Below, piece by piece: positions 5,484 to 11,723 of a DNA stretch of 37,666 nucleotides. Below the pieces are notes generated by a model, which worked only from the letters and a program-made list of their open reading frames with translations, made no database searches and had not been told where the DNA came from. This DNA comes from a virus: UHGV virus genome UHGV-0324630, one strand, 5' to 3'. The stretch's first letter is position 1; each line of letters starts with the position of its first letter. A program made the position numbers and the translations under genes.

Positions 5484-5605
5484 GAAACCAGAACATGCAC
5501 ACACAAAAAAACCGCTTGCCATGCCGCAATCGGTCAGGTTACATTTCCGCTGCACCTCATAAAACGGGTGCCGGGATTCTCAACCCGATACAGAGCAAAG
5601 CGCAT

Positions 5606-5626
5606 AACCGCGCTAGCGGTTTTTTT
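5606..5626 (+). terminator. Intrinsic terminator-like hairpin (AACCGC-gcta-GCGGTT followed by a T-run)
   Basis: GC-rich 6-bp stem, 4-nt loop, then about 7 T; 123 nt downstream of the stop at 5483. Confidence 0.5.
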
Positions 5627-5805
5627 GTGCGTACTGTATTGCCACGTCTTTTTCGCGTCAGAATTATGGCGGGGCGTACGGGGCCGACTTCGGTCGGGCC
5701 GGATTCTTTGCTCTCCGGTGTTGAGAACCCTGTACGTCTCGCCACCCCGAGATTCTCAACTCTGGATGGTGAGTTATTTCTATCACCGAGCAAAGAGGCC
5801 ACACC

Positions 5806-6480: not shown

Positions 6481-9303
6481 ATGACGGCAGAGTACATCAG
6501 GGACTGGCAACAACCGCGCCACGCAGTGGGGCGTGAAGGAACGGGGATCCCCGCTCCTGAATCTGCGCTTTCCTCCTGGCTGGATGCCTACCGGGCAGAG
6601 AACGAGCGCCGCCAGGAAATGGCTGATGCGGCGTTCTCCGCCACACCGCTGGGCAACCTGATTAATAAAAGCCTGGACGCACAGGAAAAACAGGACAAAG
6701 CCATCACACTGGCAGGAGACGCCAGAAAACAGGCACGCGGCGCGGTGGATGAAGCCATGGCCTCGCTGCGCCTGCTGCCGTCCTATTTGCGCGATCCACT
6801 TATTCGTCACCTCTCCTTCCTGCGCAAAAAACAGGAAGCCGATCGCCGGAAAGGCAAAAAGAGCTGGCAGGCAGAACGCTATGCACGCGGAACCCTGCGC
6901 AAGATATTCGATCGCATAAACCGCACCGACAGCCGCTGGCTGACACCGGGTTATCGCTCCCTTGCCGGACGCGAACGCCTGGACGATTTGCTTTACCTGC
7001 CGCAGCTCAACAAGCACCAGATACAGACGCTGGCTACCATGACGGCGGCGATGTTCAGCAGCACCTTCGAAAAACTCTGCGATGGTTTTGGCGCGACCGA
7101 TGGCGAGCTGACCATGGATGTAACCCTGAAGGCGTATCAGATGCTGGCCCGCATGGCGTTACACCTGCACGCCATGCCTCCACATTATGACGCACTGACA
7201 ACAGACAAAGACCGGAGGAACGAACCGGACACGGAGCTGCTGCCAGGCGCAATCCTTCGCCTGACCTGTGCGGAATGGTGGAAACGCAAACTGTGGCTGT
7301 TACGTTGTGAGTGGCGGGAAGAACAACTTCGCGCCGCCTGTCTGGTTTCCAGAAAAACATCGCCCTATCTGAGCCAGGACGCGTTAAGCGAGTTTCGCGC
7401 ACAGCGCGAGAAAACACGCGATTTCCTGAAAAGTTTCATGCTGGAAAACGAAGACGGGTTCACGATTGATCTCGAGACAGTGTATTACGCGGGAGTAAGT
7501 AACCCGGTTCACCGTAAGGCAGAAATGATGGCCACCATGAAGGGGCTGGAACTTCTGGCCGAAGCCCGTGGCGACAAAGCGGTGTTTCTGACTGTCACCT
7601 GCCCGTCAAAATACCACGCCACAACAGAGAACGGTCATCCGAATCCCAAATGGAACGGGGCCACCATGCGCGACTCCAGCGATTACCTGGTTAACACGTT
7701 TTTTGCGGCGGTCCGCAAGAAACTGAACCGCGACGGCCTGCGCTGGTATGGCATCCGCACGGTGGAGCCTCACCATGACGGCACCGTGCACTGGCATATG
7801 ATGGTCTTTGCTCATCCGGAAGAAATCGACACCATTGTGTCCCACACCCGTGATATTGCCATTCAGGAAGATCGTCACGAGCTGGGTGATGATATTACCC
7901 CACGCTTTAAGGCGGAGTACGTCGACGGCTCAAAAGGCACACCGACCAGCTACATCGCCACCTACATCGGGAAAAACCTGGACAGCCGTGCCGTGGATGG
8001 CATCGACCCGAAAACGGGCAAGCCACGCGTTGACCACGAAACCGGAAAATCAATGGCCGAGAGCGTGGAACGCGCCATCGGCTGGGCGCGCCTTCACCGG
8101 GTCCGCCAGTTCCAGTTTTTTGGTATCCCCTCCCGTCAGGTGTGGCGTGAGCTGCGTCGCCTTGCCAGCCAGATGGCACGCAACCCGGAAGGCCCACAAC
8201 GGCTGAAGGATGACGCAATGGATGCGGTTCTTGCTGCCGCTGATGCCGGATGTTTTGCCACCTACATAGAGAAACAGGGCGGCGTACTTGTTCCACGCAA
8301 GGACTACCTGGTTCGCACCGCCTACGACCTCGCAGATGAACTGAATGATTACGGCGAACAGAGCGTACAGATTTACGGGATCTGGTCACCACTCATCGGG
8401 GAATCCTCTCGTGTGTGCACGCATCCGGATAACTGGAAGCTGGTAAGACGTAAACCGGAAACGGAAGACAGCGCCCGCGAAAATGGTTTTGACCTTCAGG
8501 GCGGCCCTGCCGCCCCTTGGACTCGTGGCAATAACTGTCCCCGTGTACAGGAAACGGACAACAACGGGACAGAACAGCCGGAAGAACGGCCAGCACCGTG
8601 GCCGCAGCTCCCTGACGGCGTTGAAGTGAACGAATGGATGCGCTCACTGAAACGGCACGAACGCCGGGCGCTGATGCGTTCGCTTCGTGACAAACAGGCA
8701 AAAAACAGCAGTGATGAAATGCAGAGCTGGACACAGAGCCGCAAACAGCAGCGGCCTTTGCCTGATAACCACGAATTACTCGCTAAAGAATGGCGGGAGT
8801 CTGCTGAATCTCTCGGCCTGCATATCGGTGAACAACAGATGCAGCACCTGTTACGGGGCGGCAGTCTGTACGTTGACGGCAGCATCATTGCACCGCAGGG
8901 ATTTGAAATTATACGCAAACCGGATACCCGCCCGGACAGCCGAATCACGCAGCTCTGGCAGCGCCTGAGCCGTAATCACGGCGTAAGCAGCACGGAGATC
9001 CGCCATAACCCGGTCGCCAGCTATCTGGCACAGCTGGGGGCATCAGCCCCTGAAGCCGCCGCACGCCTGGCATCCACACTTCAGCAGGACCAGAACACCA
9101 TGAAAACACCCGTTACCGTGCTTTCTGACATGCTGCGCGCCATCCGCGACGCAGAGCACGCACAGAGAATCAGTGAAACCACTGAACGCGCCCGCCGCAA
9201 AGCAGACCTGCTGCGGGGTGGCCTGACCAGTGGAAACAATAAACAGACAGAAACGGGACTCACGAATCCCGTAAATGAGCAAAAAACGCGCAGCGATATA
9301 TGA
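6481..9303 (+). CDS. A: Rolling-circle replication initiation endonuclease (P2 gpA family), with a long C-terminal extension
   Basis: 940-aa ORF; HUH-type motif GTVHWHMMVFAHP and paired-tyrosine motif TSYIATYIGKN typical of P2 A-type Rep proteins. Longer than P2 gpA (about 760 aa by my memory). Confidence 0.9.
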   Translation: MTAEYIRDWQQPRHAVGREGTGIPAPESALSSWLDAYRAENERRQEMADAAFSATPLGNLINKSLDAQEKQDKAITLAGDARKQARGAVDEAMASLRLLPSYLRDPLIRHLSFLRKKQEADRRKGKKSWQAERYARGTLRKIFDRINRTDSRWLTPGYRSLAGRERLDDLLYLPQLNKHQIQTLATMTAAMFSSTFEKLCDGFGATDGELTMDVTLKAYQMLARMALHLHAMPPHYDALTTDKDRRNEPDTELLPGAILRLTCAEWWKRKLWLLRCEWREEQLRAACLVSRKTSPYLSQDALSEFRAQREKTRDFLKSFMLENEDGFTIDLETVYYAGVSNPVHRKAEMMATMKGLELLAEARGDKAVFLTVTCPSKYHATTENGHPNPKWNGATMRDSSDYLVNTFFAAVRKKLNRDGLRWYGIRTVEPHHDGTVHWHMMVFAHPEEIDTIVSHTRDIAIQEDRHELGDDITPRFKAEYVDGSKGTPTSYIATYIGKNLDSRAVDGIDPKTGKPRVDHETGKSMAESVERAIGWARLHRVRQFQFFGIPSRQVWRELRRLASQMARNPEGPQRLKDDAMDAVLAAADAGCFATYIEKQGGVLVPRKDYLVRTAYDLADELNDYGEQSVQIYGIWSPLIGESSRVCTHPDNWKLVRRKPETEDSARENGFDLQGGPAAPWTRGNNCPRVQETDNNGTEQPEERPAPWPQLPDGVEVNEWMRSLKRHERRALMRSLRDKQAKNSSDEMQSWTQSRKQQRPLPDNHELLAKEWRESAESLGLHIGEQQMQHLLRGGSLYVDGSIIAPQGFEIIRKPDTRPDSRITQLWQRLSRNHGVSSTEIRHNPVASYLAQLGASAPEAAARLASTLQQDQNTMKTPVTVLSDMLRAIRDAEHAQRISETTERARRKADLLRGGLTSGNNKQTETGLTNPVNEQKTRSDI

Positions 9304-9348
9304 AGCGCGCACAAAACAGGCAAAAACGGGATTTCAGAATCCCGTAAA
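9251..9348. repeat. Two copies of a ~25-bp dyad-containing repeat (AAACGGGA-N8-GAATCCCGTAAA); candidate parC-like centromere/operator
   Basis: Copy 1 at 9251..9275 (inside the gpA 3' end), copy 2 at 9324..9348 (parM upstream region); each holds an inverted repeat GGGAyT-N4-AATCCC; flanking A-rich context is also similar. Confidence 0.4.
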
Positions 9349-9379
9349 CGATTAATTAATCAACATAAGGAAAAGCGAC

Positions 9380-10339
9380 ATGAAAATTTGTATCGACGAC
9401 GGCTCCACCAACATCAAGCTGGCATGGACTGAGAACGGCGAACGCCGCAACGCCATCAGCCCGAACAGCTTCAAGTCGGAATGGTCTGCGCCGTTCGGTG
9501 GCACGCAGCCCGCGAACTACATGCTTGATGGCGTGCGCTATGGTTTTGATCCTGTCAGCGATCGCTTTGTCCAGACGACCGACACGCAATACCAATACAG
9601 CGATGTGAATGTCATTGCCATTCATCACGCGCTGGTCAAATCAGGCATCACGCCACAGGAGGTGGATGTGGTTGTCACCCTGCCACTGAGCGAGTATTTC
9701 GACACAAACGCACAGCCGGACATGGCCAACATCAACCGCAAAAAAGCGAACGTTATGCGCCCGGTGGAGTACCAGAACGGCAAAGCATTCACTATCCGTA
9801 ACGTACGGGTTATGCCTGAATCTATTCCGGCTGGCTTTAAAGCACTGGCTGACATGAGTCCGTTTGAATCCCTGCTGATTGTGGATTTAGGCGGAACCAC
9901 GCTGGATGTGGCAAAGGTTCAGGGACAACTGGCAGGTATCAGCCAGGTGTTTTGCGATCCACACGTAGGCGTTTCCCTGATGGCCGATGCAGTACTGTCG
10001 GTGATGGCCACTAACGGTATGCGTACCAGTCACCACATCGCCAATACCATTATCGAACATCGCCATGATGAAGCTTGGCTGCGCCAGCACATCCACAATG
10101 ACGCGCATTACGCCAGCCTGATGGCGGTTATTCGTGAAAAGGAAGAAACACTGAAACAACGCGTGATCCGCGCGCTGGCGGGTTTTTCGGGTTACGGGCG
10201 GGTGATGGTTGTCGGTGGCGGAGCGGAGATTGTGGCACCCGCTATCCGCGAAGCCTGCGGGGTTAATGCGACTTTCATCGCGGACGGGGTGCCACAGTTT
10301 GCTCTGGTTAATGGGCTGTACGCAATGGACAAGGAGTAA
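9380..10339 (+). CDS. parM: ParM/StbA-family actin-like ATPase (type II partition NTPase)
   Basis: 319-aa ORF; N-terminus MKICIDDGSTNIKLAW...ISPNSFKSEW...YQYSDVNVIAIHHAL and later PESIPAGF, IVDLGGTTLD, FSGY..VMVVGGGAE align closely with my memory of plasmid R1 ParM (MLVFIDDGSTNIKLQW...ISPNSFKREW...). Confidence 0.9.
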   Translation: MKICIDDGSTNIKLAWTENGERRNAISPNSFKSEWSAPFGGTQPANYMLDGVRYGFDPVSDRFVQTTDTQYQYSDVNVIAIHHALVKSGITPQEVDVVVTLPLSEYFDTNAQPDMANINRKKANVMRPVEYQNGKAFTIRNVRVMPESIPAGFKALADMSPFESLLIVDLGGTTLDVAKVQGQLAGISQVFCDPHVGVSLMADAVLSVMATNGMRTSHHIANTIIEHRHDEAWLRQHIHNDAHYASLMAVIREKEETLKQRVIRALAGFSGYGRVMVVGGGAEIVAPAIREACGVNATFIADGVPQFALVNGLYAMDKE

Positions 10340-10343
10340 ACCA

Positions 10344-10655
10344 ATGACGACACCAACCAGACGGATAAGTTTCTATCTGAAGCCCGCCGCCGTCAAGAAC
10401 GAAGGCGAAGCATGCGCCTGGCTGGACAGCCTTACACCAGAAGCCCGTAAAAACGGCCAACGCGTGGCTTTTCTGGCCGGGCTGGCGCTTCTGAAAATGA
10501 ATCCGGCAGAGGCTTACCGACTGGCAGCATGGGCTGACGATGAGGCGTTATCAGTGACACAAACCAGGACAGAACGCCCCCTGTCACAGCCAGTACCAAC
10601 CGCACAGATAACCAGTCAGATGGCCGGAAATATCAGGGCGTTATTTCCTGAATAA
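10344..10655 (+). CDS. parR: ParR-like centromere-binding adaptor (RHH family)
   Basis: 103-aa ORF from ATG 10344 (AAGGAG RBS); RISFYLKPAAVKNEGEACAWLDSLTPEARKNGQRVAFLAGLALLKMNP and C-terminal IRALFPE resemble R1 ParR (IAFKLNPDV...DSIPQGERSRLNRAALTAGLALYRQDP, LRSLFPKE) from memory. The longer track ORF from 10209 overlaps parM and is probably not the true start. Confidence 0.8.
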   Translation: MTTPTRRISFYLKPAAVKNEGEACAWLDSLTPEARKNGQRVAFLAGLALLKMNPAEAYRLAAWADDEALSVTQTRTERPLSQPVPTAQITSQMAGNIRALFPE

Positions 10656-10663
10656 CACAACGT

Positions 10664-10681
10664 CAGGGCGAGTTCGCCCTG
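10664..10681 (+). terminator. Stem-loop (CAGGGCG-agtt-CGCCCTG) just downstream of parR; possible terminator or stabiliser, no U-tract
   Basis: Perfect 7-bp GC-rich stem read directly from the sequence. Confidence 0.3.
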
Positions 10682-10718
10682 ATCTCCATCTCAGAACATA
10701 AACAAGAAGAGCGACTTA

Positions 10719-11102
10719 ATGAGCAAAATCAACTATCAGGCATTACGTGAACGTTATTCACCTGCACCAGTACCAAAATGCCCTATTTGCGGCGAAGAAA
10801 TGTCAATTCAGCGAATATCTGGAGCACAGGTTGTTTATGCCTGCTCCAGTTATGGTGATGATGGAGATTTCAAAGTTGGTCGAACTCTTGTCGACGAACA
10901 TTATGAAAAATCACGCGTAACAGTGTTGGATGTCGGGGCCCCTGAAGTATTGGCGCTACTTGATTGACTGGAAACCAAAGACAACCGAATCACTGAACTG
11001 GAAAAAATCGCCACTGACTATGCACTTAAATTCCAGAAAGCACAGGACGCATTAAAGTACGCCGCTTTGCTGCATAGCAGGACAGCGCAGCTAAAATACT
11101 AA
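10719..11102 (+). pseudogene. Zn-ribbon/coiled-coil small protein interrupted by an in-frame TGA at 10965..10967 (probable TGG to TGA nonsense change); 82-aa product if terminated
   Basis: ORF 10719..10967 (CPICGEEM...YACSS) stops at TGA, but the same frame continues protein-like for 44 more codons (LETKDNRITELEKIATDYALKFQKAQDALKYAALLHSRTAQLKY) to TAA at 11100-11102. Reading TGA as Trp gives a seamless ...LALLDWLETKDN... junction. Confidence 0.4.
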
Positions 11103-11192
11103 CTTAAAGCGGAAGATTAATACATGGTGAGTCGGGGTAATTTGTTTTTATCCCGACAAATAAACAAAAAAGTGGACTATCTCTGTAGTATC

Positions 11193-11723
11193 TTATTCAG
11201 CATCGTCTCGTGCAGTCTGTGCATACGTCACAACAACGCCCAATGCATTAGTTTTCTTTTCAACATAGATAATATTGTCATATTCATAGTTACCATACGG
11301 ATAGCAAATAAGAATATTTTTATGCAGTTCGGGATCATCAACAAACGCTCCGGAACAGCTTCTTGAACTACCAGATGTATACTCATACGGTGCAACATAT
11401 GATGATGTTACTCCTGGTAAAAAATAAGTCACCATCATAAGAGGGATAATCAGGAATATCCCTGTAAGAATGCAAGAGCCAGCATAAACCTTCAGGTATT
11501 CCGACAGTCCTTTCCAGCCACTTTGCTTCACTACCCCCCTCTTCACCAGAAACAAGGAGAAGAAAAAGGACATACCCATACTACACAAGATGTAATAATT
11601 GGATATACGCGAATTAAGATATGTAATCCTGTAGATATCTGCCCTCCACCAGTAAAAGAGGAAAATAATCCCTAGCACTGAAACAGTCATGCAAATCAAA
11701 TAAGGATATGAATCTTTCTTCAT
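11193..11723 (-). CDS. Integral membrane protein (about 4 TM helices plus a C-terminal soluble region), unknown function; AT-rich cargo gene at the position of the P2 tin/old accessory locus
   Basis: 176-aa ORF; hydrophobic segments LICMTVSVLGIIFLFYWW, YILCSMGMSFFFSLFLV, VYAGSCILTGIFLIIPLMMVTYFL; markedly AT-rich relative to the phage backbone. Confidence 0.65.
   Translation of the reverse strand: MKKDSYPYLICMTVSVLGIIFLFYWWRADIYRITYLNSRISNYYILCSMGMSFFFSLFLVKRGVVKQSGWKGLSEYLKVYAGSCILTGIFLIIPLMMVTYFLPGVTSSYVAPYEYTSGSSRSCSGAFVDDPELHKNILICYPYGNYEYDNIIYVEKKTNALGVVVTYAQTARDDAE

Follow-up and report, generated by a model that had tools for sequence, protein, structure and literature searches.

A pair of dyad repeats upstream of parM as the probable ParR-binding locus of P88-like phages

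Results and Discussion

Two repeats directly upstream of parM in the virus genome UHGV-0324630 (UHGV collection; read over a stretch of 37,666 nucleotides, hereafter "the window") probably constitute the cis-acting ParR-binding locus, that is, a parC-type centromere, of a type II ParMRC cassette carried by P88-like phages of the P2 family. This assignment rests on comparison of sequences, namely, on the anatomy and conservation of the repeats, their modular linkage to parM, and their co-variation with the type of ParR. The sequence-only reading had proposed a ParR-bound centromere or operator at this position, and the linkage, the conservation, and the co-variation with ParR speak for it. Textbooks present ParMRC as the minimal machine for DNA segregation, and in the current model, the end of a ParM filament is captured by a ring of many ParR dimers assembled on an array of iterons. 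A site consisting of two dyads would be an architectural variant of the known parC kind, and a new one as far as literature searches on partition loci of P88 or Xuanwuvirus go, which returned nothing relevant and no published description of the sites.

Anatomy of the repeat pair

The window represents an E. coli prophage of the P88-like type (P2 family), in which gpA is directly followed by a parM-parR pair of the R1 type. The genes for an R1-type ParM and an RHH ParR follow immediately 3′ of the repeat pair, which corresponds to the order parC-parM-parR. The features of the region are as follows (strand given where one applies):

6481-9303, plus strand: gpA, replication endonuclease, 940 aa (PF05840, 1.9e-131)
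9230-9352: A-tracts phased at 10-10.5 bp across both sites; intrinsic curvature predicted from a sequence proxy
9241-9278: distal 38-nt repeat unit (direct-repeat family D1) with A-rich leader, 16-bp site, and GTAAA tail, inside the last gpA codons
9255-9270: core site of the distal unit, GGGACTCACGAATCCC (GGG-N10-CCC), made up of two iteron-like half-sites in inverted orientation; −125 relative to the parM ATG
9279-9313: 35 bp separating the units, with the gpA stop, GCGCGC...GCGCGC, and ATGAGC-16-TATATG, which weakly resembles a promoter
9314-9351: proximal 38-nt repeat unit (family D1), intergenic
9328-9343: proximal core site GGGATTTCAGAATCCC, GGG-N10-CCC, at −52 from the parM ATG
9350-9361: 12-bp perfect palindrome GATTAATTAATC, of which ATTAATCAA is conserved in outgroups
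9367-9372, plus strand: Shine-Dalgarno sequence AAGGAA of parM, read from the sequence and kept in relatives
9380-10339, plus strand: parM, actin-like segregation ATPase, 319 aa (PF06406, 3.8e-82; PF21523, 1.3e-68; phrog_691)
10344-10655, plus strand: parR, RHH adaptor, 103 aa (PF10784, 5.5e-24)

The initial claim had been of two ~25-bp repeats with the inverted repeat GGGAyT-N4-AATCCC, straddling the gpA stop and present in only two copies. All of this held. The 25-mers lie exactly at 9251-9275 and 9324-9348 (plus strand), and both contain the inverted repeat; the arms of the proximal copy are perfect over 8 bp (ACGGGATT/AATCCCGT, 4-nt spacer), whereas those of the distal copy have one mismatch. 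The distal copy corresponds to codons 924-932 of the 940-codon gpA (ORF 6481-9303), the proximal copy is intergenic, and the stop codon TGA (9301-9303) lies between them. The extended pattern AAACGGGAyT-N4-AATCCCGTAAA occurs exactly twice in the window, compared with an expectation of 0.00 (no match in 100 dinucleotide-preserving shuffles), and allowing up to three mismatches does not yield any further match in the 37,666 bases. Exact AATCCCGT half-sites were not found elsewhere in the window, and those with one mismatch are near chance level (38 found vs 29 expected).

The repeat unit is longer than first described. It comprises 38 nt, and the two units are direct repeats with 82% identity, 73 bp apart from start to start. 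The essential element of each is the 16-bp GGGAYT-N4-AATCCC, which in the wider clade is reduced to GGG-N10-CCC; its two half-sites, inverted relative to each other, have their triplet centers 13 bp apart, and one site follows the other at a distance of 73 bp. Within the P88 family, the 35 bp between the units vary more than the sites do. The region is also marked by the phasing of its A-tracts; the Fourier power of AA dinucleotides at a period of 10.5 was not reached by any of 2000 shuffles or of 1502 slices of the window. This phasing is absent from the Hafnia and Plesiomonas loci described below, as judged by the same AA-periodicity analysis. The palindrome at 9350-9361 is possibly a −10 element or the site of another protein.

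The sites travel with parM

Cassettes of the P88 family were sampled by ParM alone, ignoring the dyad, which yielded 51 distinct upstream regions. Both sites were present in all 51, and perfect at both positions in 39; the spacing in these 39 was 73 (38 regions) or 72 (one region). In a metagenome sample, 50 of 51 upstream regions of the family contained both sites. Among 38 variants of the site, GG/CC is invariant. Even at a decayed locus (L067), the sites were retained beside a truncated parM. Dyad matches also occur in viral contigs without parM (L004, L044, L049, L063, and L071/L092), where they are single, unrelated hairpins; thus, the 20-mer alone is not diagnostic, but the pair beside parM is.

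The breakpoints between related loci show with which gene the sites move. In L057, whose replication protein is only 31% identical to gpA, the left edge of the distal repeat is where similarity to the window begins, and both sites are intergenic; in L082, which also has an unrelated replication gene, similarity likewise begins at this edge. The last ~22 codons of gpA in the window are, judging from this module boundary, contributed by the par module. At a third locus (L024), similarity begins at the proximal unit, with IS-type ORFs just 5′ of it. These arrangements bear on whether the sites serve replication or regulation of the phage instead of ParR, be it as the origin or nick site of gpA or as a target of Cox, Ogr, the C repressor, or a host factor. 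In P2, gene A contains the origin, the distal copy here lies within the 3′ end of this gene, and the locus as a whole is situated where early genes give way to accessory ones, all of which would suit such a role. However, the sites remain with parM where gpA has been swapped (L057), P2-like phages that combine a related gpA with a different type of ParR (L126, L184, and L186) lack them, they track the type of the ParR β-strand, and the motif is found nowhere else in the phage genome. An origin or another regulatory site of the phage was, thus, rejected, as it is parM, not gpA, that the sites accompany, and we consider this explanation very unlikely.

Conservation extends to diverged lineages. 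In L268, parM has a synonymous divergence of 0.46 from that of the window, and identity of the upstream region is 78%; yet 23 of 24 core positions are unchanged, whereas bases of the outer arms have changed. The ParMs of the Hafnia (L181) and Plesiomonas (L183) phages are only 61-62% identical to that of the window, and their upstream regions show 52-59% identity in a forced alignment, with flanks that are not alignable. Both nevertheless possess a GGG-N10-CCC pair, at −128/−55 (Hafnia, 73-bp spacing) and −131/−59 (Plesiomonas, 72-bp spacing), compared with −125/−52 in the window. For each lineage, the probability that such a pair arises by chance within 200 nt does not exceed 3.5e-5. The GGG clade, nonetheless, consists of only three independent lineages: a query with the Plesiomonas ParR returned only itself, the Hafnia ParM retrieved nothing from viral contigs, the Plesiomonas ParM retrieved one locus, which belongs to the other clade, and a scan of metagenomes for new lineages of the clade recovered only P88-family cassettes and plasmid types.

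The dyads could also be regarded as hairpins, acting either as intrinsic terminators on the minus strand or, within the gpA-parM transcript, as a structure affecting RNA stability or regulation. On the minus strand, both copies were scored as terminator-like, their 8-bp stem leading into TTTTTGCC or TTCTGTCT, and RNA hairpins of −9 to −10.7 kcal/mol are predicted for either strand (z-scores of −2.1 to −3.3). However, no gene on the minus strand reads into the dyads, a terminator-like site is already present just 3′ of parR (10682-10663), and on the plus strand, no U-tract follows the dyads. Neither has pairing been maintained. The fraction of paired cells is 89.5% vs 88.2% in shuffles, with four compensatory vs 32 unpaired cells; L268 has lost outer stem pairs, and the Hafnia and Plesiomonas loci keep only a 3-4-bp GGG/CCC stem with a 10-nt loop, most z-scores being near background, and yet position and spacing of the sites are conserved there despite the loss of the hairpin. 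A search of Rfam 15 over 9241-9351 did not give any covariance-model match up to E = 1. Because hairpin potential is not conserved, the terminator and the RNA reading both fail; context, unmaintained pairing, loss of the hairpin in the outgroups, and the Rfam result led to their rejection, and we regard them as exceedingly improbable. The sole Rfam match within 8900-9700 (8934-9070) is unrelated and below threshold.

The sites co-vary with the DNA-reading strand of ParR

Assignment of ParR to the RHH proteins rests on Pfam and on a profile match to ParR/StbB of pB171 (2JD3, E = 0.002); in a low-confidence AlphaFold2 model of the monomer (13-sequence alignment; pLDDT 55.7), the β-strand is not formed. 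The start codon of parR is ATG 10344, whereas the mechanical ORF list places it at TTG 10209.

The repeat pair was present in eight of eight cassettes whose ParR has the β-strand TRR(I/V)SFYL and in none of 56 with other strands. The same was true for other strands in an additional metagenome sample (0/20), and L271 was negative too. RRK-type ParRs, in turn, are accompanied by TCTC iterons at a spacing of about 11 bp. The sequence of the repeats, therefore, co-varies with the DNA-reading strand of the cognate ParR, as expected of an R1-type parC. Comparison with homologous cassettes, which the sequence-only reading had put forward as a check, was thus favorable: the sites follow parM and recur in diverged lineages, and the homologous cassettes devoid of the repeat (those of Serratia/Enterobacter phages and of plasmids) have both another ParR strand and other repeats, which is co-variation rather than refutation. 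The pairing of ParR strand and repeat type across phage and plasmid cassettes provides a small natural data set on the specificity of RHH-DNA recognition; it also bears on likely incompatibility groups.

That ParR alleles with as little as 40-53% identity share the same dyads could be held against binding by ParR. This argument was rejected because divergence is confined to the linker. Between 94% and 40% identity, the RHH domain and the C-terminal tail are invariant, specifically, the 50 N-terminal residues and the C-terminal NIRALFPE. A fixed RHH domain and tail, connected by a variable linker, fit a DNA site and a ParM partner that are both fixed.

Comparison with known partition loci and repressor operators

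The locus shares with parC of R1/NR1 its position upstream of parM-parR, its division into two blocks, and the homology of the proteins (ParM, PF06406/PF21523; RHH ParR, PF10784). Iterons of the R1 type (AAAACCCAAAA and CAAACCCAATA, from parC as read in L150/L152) resemble the half-sites GAATCCCGTAAA, AAACCCAAAAAC, and AAAACCCGAAAT, with which they have a CCC core in an A-rich context in common. The curvature predicted here by a sequence proxy matches that reported for R1 parC (PMC2241845). The latter consists of 10 direct 11-bp iterons, each bound by one ParR dimer, with five iterons on either side of a 39-bp promoter core (PMC2241845). In contrast, the window contains two pairs of inverted half-sites with no clear promoter between them; a tandem array of direct 11-bp iterons, as in R1-type parC, was absent, the two 38-nt repeats being all that was found. 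The earlier remark that there are fewer copies than in the R1 array is, thus, accurate (four half-sites vs 10 iterons). The proteins differ as well (ParM about 47% identical; ParR strand TRRISFYL here vs KRRTIAFKL in R1), and so do the hosts, an integrating phage here and a plasmid in the case of R1.

The closest plasmid ParMs (47-53% identity) are those of enterobacterial plasmids with TCTC iterons, relatives of the system to which pB171 ParR/StbB (PDB 2JD3) belongs. Gene order and protein families agree, but these plasmids have 4-11 TCTC iterons at a spacing of about 11 bp, in two clusters flanking a TTGACA/TATAAT promoter, their ParR strand is RRK(I/L)xFY(L/I), and none of them contains the GGG-N10-CCC pair. 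The RHH ParR of pSK41 also binds repeated DNA upstream of its operon and forms a segrosome (PMC5016525); compared by description, its parC differs in that contiguous 10-bp repeats are wrapped around a ParR superhelix, as opposed to two isolated dyads.

Operators of RHH repressors (Arc/Mnt, CopG, and omega) are short dyads as well, each probably occupied by two RHH dimers, and cooperative binding is possible where sites share one face of the helix. In this respect, the sites of the window, short and dyad-symmetric, are similar. However, those proteins are pure regulators of transcription lacking a motor-binding tail, whereas ParR here keeps the conserved C-terminal tail that binds ParM.

This likeness leads to the question whether the sites are a transcriptional operator only, by which ParR or another repressor autoregulates parMR, the partition site being elsewhere or partitioning having been lost. 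Two dyad-symmetric sites are indeed typical of RHH operators and not of iteron arrays, R1 ParR is an autorepressor (PMC2241845), and at the Hafnia locus, the −35 element of a good candidate promoter (TTCATT-18-TATATT, score 10.0) falls within the proximal site. The window, however, does not offer a convincing promoter to control. Within 200 nt upstream of parM, the best σ70 match by PWM scored 1.8 (background mean 6.0); matches between the repeat blocks scored 0.9-1.8, a candidate overlapping the proximal site was also weak, and none of the PWM candidates lies at a common position in all three lineages. This weakens the operator half of the original proposal. Moreover, no other repeat cluster fit to be a centromere was found in or around the cassette, and both ParM (pN/pS of 0.02-0.12, indicating strong purifying selection) and the ParM-binding tail of ParR are strongly constrained, from which it follows that the linkage of motor, adaptor, and DNA is in use and that a cis site is needed. 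In all characterized type II systems, operator and centromere are the same DNA (PMC5016525). A purely regulatory function is, hence, unlikely, if somewhat less so than the alternatives discussed above.

A probable sparse centromere and its possible role in the phage

For a parC-type centromere, the half-sites suggest the following mode of action. Each 16-bp site consists of two inverted half-sites, each similar to an R1 iteron with its CCC core and A-rich context. At every GGG/CCC triplet, one ParR dimer would insert its TRRISFYL β-ribbon into the major groove, so that each site would hold two dimers and the locus four. As 73 bp correspond to seven helical turns, both sites would be on the same face of the helix, and the phased A-tracts (in the P88 family) would allow the bound dimers to be gathered into a compact complex. 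Such a complex would offer the conserved NIRALFPE tails of ParR to a ParM filament at its growing end, and the filament would then push the DNA. From sequence features of this kind, we infer binding by ParR, its stoichiometry, looping of the DNA, and activity as a centromere or an operator. The geometry of binding is conjectural, since the half-sites are 13 bp apart and inverted and not 11 bp apart and direct as in R1. The ParR ring contains about 12 dimers per turn (PMC5016525). Given this number and the 10 iterons of R1, a ring that captures filaments appears doubtful with four half-sites. ParR binding may additionally repress transcription of parMR; this step is less secure because a convincing promoter is not visible and parMR may simply be transcribed by read-through from the early operon of the phage.

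The cassette is present in 1,304 of 5,426 complete E. coli genomes (about a quarter), and 1441 of its 1443 occurrences in E. coli are chromosomal. The host element, thus, integrates into the chromosome, which leaves the need for a centromere itself unexplained and counts against the centromere reading. We are not aware of any role that a partition system plays in a P2-like phage that integrates. It is conceivable, albeit doubtful, that a dyad centromere of four half-sites suffices for DNA movement by ParMRC and that it serves P2-like phages in positioning or segregating genomes that are replicating or have not yet been integrated (or a plasmid-like carrier state), as opposed to plasmid inheritance in the classical sense. 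If this were true, a quarter of E. coli strains would carry a normally silent chromosomal centromere together with an actin-like motor. The conserved two-dyad cassette allows a direct test of the minimum number of sequence-specific ParR contacts required for a working centromere, and of whether curved DNA can replace iteron number; with a cis site defined, the role of the partition system in P2-like phages becomes testable.

A functional analogy is offered by the prophage CGP3 of Corynebacterium, where AlpC reportedly forms actin-like filaments and the adaptor AlpA binds specific sites on the phage DNA (alpS), the system being implicated in transport and replication of phage DNA and not in plasmid inheritance (PMC4446434, PMC5539076). 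The likeness does not go beyond function; proteins and sites are unrelated in sequence to those described here, and the host is Gram-positive.

The upstream region of parM contains two direct repeats

The sequence-only reading had placed two ~25-bp dyad repeats at 9251–9275 and 9324–9348, straddling the stop codon of gpA. Both were found exactly there (sequences as read from the window):

9251–9275, distal 25-mer copy, AAACGGGACTCACGAATCCCGTAAA
9324–9348, proximal 25-mer copy, AAACGGGATTTCAGAATCCCGTAAA
6481–9303, gpA ORF, stop codon at 9301–9303

A search tolerating as many as three mismatches found the degenerate 25-mer only twice in the 37,666-base window and never in 100 dinucleotide-preserving shuffles. 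The supposed length was too short: although the 25-mers are present, the actual direct repeats are 38 nt long (9241–9278 and 9314–9351; 82% identical), with a start-to-start distance of 73 bp. From the extent of the gpA ORF it follows that the distal copy occupies codons 924–932 of 940, that the stop codon indeed falls between the copies, and that the proximal copy is intergenic, with the parM ATG (9380) 52 bp downstream. According to Pfam and PHROGs, gpA is of the P2 family (PF05840), ParM is R1-type (PF06406 and PF21523), and ParR/StbB is an RHH protein (PF10784) likely starting at the ATG at 10344 (103 aa); a profile of ParR alleles matched the solved pB171 ParR/StbB (2JD3, E = 0.002).

Downstream of the proximal site, and before the Shine-Dalgarno sequence of parM, lies a perfect 12-bp palindrome, GATTAATTAATC (9350–9361); its ATTAATCAA portion is kept at the equivalent place in phages of Hafnia and Plesiomonas. 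Possible roles are a −10 element or a binding site of another protein.

The sites are conserved and travel with parM

Comparison with the parM upstream regions of homologous cassettes had been proposed as a check. When 80 viral loci were picked by their ParM protein alone, without use of the dyad, both 16-bp sites (GGGAYT-N4-AATCCC) were present in 51/51 distinct upstream regions; in a metagenome sample, the proportion was 50/51. Both sites of 39 of the 51 ParM-picked regions were perfect matches to GGG-N10-CCC, spaced by 73 (n = 38) or 72 bp (n = 1), and the remainder were one base off in a GGG or CCC triplet. Most variation fell on the four central bases (TCAG/TAAA, CACG/CACA) and the outermost arm positions. 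Even in the lineage L268/L269, whose parM has diverged from that of the window by 0.46 at synonymous positions (pN/pS 0.04) and whose upstream 160 nt are 78% identical, 23 of the 24 GGGAYT/AATCCC positions were unchanged; the outer AC/GT arm bases had changed. Overall, pN/pS of parM was 0.02–0.12.

When viral contigs were scanned, the dyad turned up at 120 loci, 109 of which contained parM; the few matches without parM were single, unrelated hairpins. Loci L057 and L082 become similar to the window at the left end of the distal 38-nt unit, and L057 has both of its sites between genes. In L024, similarity starts only at the proximal unit, directly downstream of IS-type ORFs, one of which was judged by eye to be IS66 Orf2-like. 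In L067 (~8709–8900, reverse-complement orientation), parM is deleted after about 17 codons, and both sites are intact. L067 and L024 are decayed cassettes, and the repeats are part of the par module. In L057, the replication protein is just 31% identical to gpA. Together, these observations disfavor a gpA-linked function, such as that of an origin.

Distant prophages retain the arrangement, not the hairpin

In P2-like prophages of Hafnia (L181) and Plesiomonas (L183), ParM is about 62% identical to that of the window, and the upstream regions are, in a forced alignment, 59% and 52% identical, respectively. In each, GGG-N10-CCC occurs exactly twice upstream of parM (chance of such a pair ≤3.5e-5, from shuffles of each 200-nt region).

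Site pair relative to the parM ATG (distal/proximal, spacing)
Window: −125/−52, 73 bp
Hafnia (L181): −128/−55, 73 bp
Plesiomonas (L183): −131/−59, 72 bp

The inner ten bases differ from those of the window (e.g., GGGACAACAAAAACCC). Conservation concerns the G/C triplet pair, its 10-bp separation, the ~7 helical turns between the sites, and their position relative to parM. Terminator-like matches had prompted the view that the dyads are a terminator or hairpin, and the hairpins of the window do fold at −9 to −10.7 kcal/mol. This view was rejected, however: no minus-strand genes read into the dyads, no U-tract follows them on the plus strand, and they have no Rfam match. Among 38 site variants, pairing was not selected (89.5% of cells paired versus 88.2% in shuffles; 4 compensatory versus 32 unpaired cells), and the Hafnia and Plesiomonas sites, having mostly lost their hairpin potential, scarcely fold.

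No plus-strand terminator was found between gpA and parM, which makes read-through of parM from the early operon plausible. The 8800–11200 interval has more terminator-like matches than expected (12 versus 3.2), and most of them are on the minus strand; one just 3′ of parR (10682–10663, minus strand) may end leftward transcription from the portal/terminase side. Upstream of gpA, the early region gave Rfam matches above the gathering score to isrK (5552–5626, plus strand, 63 bits) and C4 antisense RNA (5662–5749, plus strand, 78.5 bits).

The site pair co-varies with the DNA-binding strand of ParR

When the ParR β-strand was compared with the upstream pair in 64 diverse cassettes, the pair was present in 8/8 with the strand TRR(I/V)SFYL, representing three lineages (P88 family, Hafnia, and Plesiomonas), and in 0/56 with other strands; it was also absent from another 20 metagenomic cassettes whose ParR belongs to other types. 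In plasmid cassettes, the strand RRK(I/L)xFY(L/I) goes with TCTC iterons spaced by ~11 bp, which form two clusters on either side of a recognizable TTGACA/TATAAT promoter. P2-like phages of Serratia and Enterobacter (L126, L184, L186, and L271; strand NRKISFYL) have a different arrangement in the 160 nt upstream of parM. There, an 18-nt inverted repeat (GGGAACGAAATAGAAAAA ... TTTTTCTATTTC) surrounds a GC-rich dyad, a GCCGTTTAAACGGC palindrome is located at −47, and the Serratia loci contain direct TTTCATGACC repeats.

Within the P88 family, ParR alleles are 94% to 40% identical in otherwise near-identical cassettes; residues 1–50 (RHH) and the C-terminal NIRALFPE are invariant and divergence is confined to the linker. 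ParR is known to consist of an N-terminal RHH that binds DNA and a C-terminal tail that binds ParM (PMC5016525), and the pattern fits this division. Because divergence sits in the linker, differing alleles can share a single site and a ParM that hardly varies; its confinement there also suggests an intragenic hot spot of recombination or diversification at residues ~60–95 of parR (10344–10655).

A putative centromere without an iteron array

Loci L150 and L152 encode a ParR N-terminus (MMDKRRTIAFKLNP) that we take to be that of R1/NR1. Their parC contains 11-bp iterons (e.g., AAAACCCAAAA, CAAACCCAATA, and TAAACCCACTT) in two clusters flanking a TTGACA-containing core, in agreement with published R1 parC, a strongly curved 159-bp region of 5+5 iterons and a 39-bp promoter core, which binds about one dimer per iteron in a U-shaped complex (PMC2241845). 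Half-sites of the window (GAATCCCGTAAA) and the outgroups (AAACCCAAAAAC and AAAACCCGAAAT) resemble these iterons, so the best interpretation of each 16-bp site is a pair of inverted, iteron-like half-sites. Unlike R1-type parC, the window locus lacks the defining iteron array. The 10.5-bp AA periodicity at 9230–9352 is the highest in the window and was reached by 0/2000 shuffles and 0/1502 slices; curvature is therefore predicted. The signal recurs in the Serratia/Enterobacter clade (A-tract phasing significant in L184 and L186, the two examined) and is absent from the Hafnia and Plesiomonas loci.

One ParR RHH dimer per GGG/CCC half-site would amount to four per locus. With both sites on one helix face, and the DNA presumably bent in the P88 family, bound ParR could form a compact complex offering its tails to the end of the ParM filament. 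Either four specific contacts would be sufficient, or they would merely nucleate further, non-specific loading of ParR over the ~110-bp segment. ParR may also autoregulate the cassette. That the sites act as an operator only is not favored: Hafnia does have a good promoter candidate, with its −35 element within the proximal site, but the window has no convincing σ70 promoter (best score 1.8 versus a background mean of 6.0) and no other centromere candidates, and both ParM and the ParM-binding tail of ParR are constrained.

No description of the locus was found in the published literature, although subscription journals were thinly covered and absence is not proof. As the kind of element and its place are as expected, the finding would hold no great surprise for a specialist; what is noteworthy is a putative centromere that departs from the iteron-array design, is kept in three phage lineages, and is very widespread in E. 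coli.

Distribution

Escherichia phage P88 and further Xuanwuvirus and P2-like phages share 95–98% identity with the window. Of 5,426 complete E. coli genomes, 1,304 contain the 9230–9700 region, with up to three copies each; among its 1,443 occurrences, 1,441 were chromosomal. A 34.4-kb record deposited as a circular plasmid (L270, NZ_CP148288.1) contains the entire genome of a P88-like phage (integrase, Cox, gpA, parMR, structural genes, and Hok/Gef). Either it captures an excised or replicating phage, or it is evidence for a state resembling that of a plasmid. Enterobacterial parMR cassettes also occurred in assemblies labeled Vagococcus, Streptomyces, Clostridiales, and Lachnospiraceae (L124, L151, L152, and L166), probably owing to contamination or mis-binning; ParM of L124 is 98% identical to that of the window, the R1 type is represented by L151 and L152, and another plasmid type by L166.
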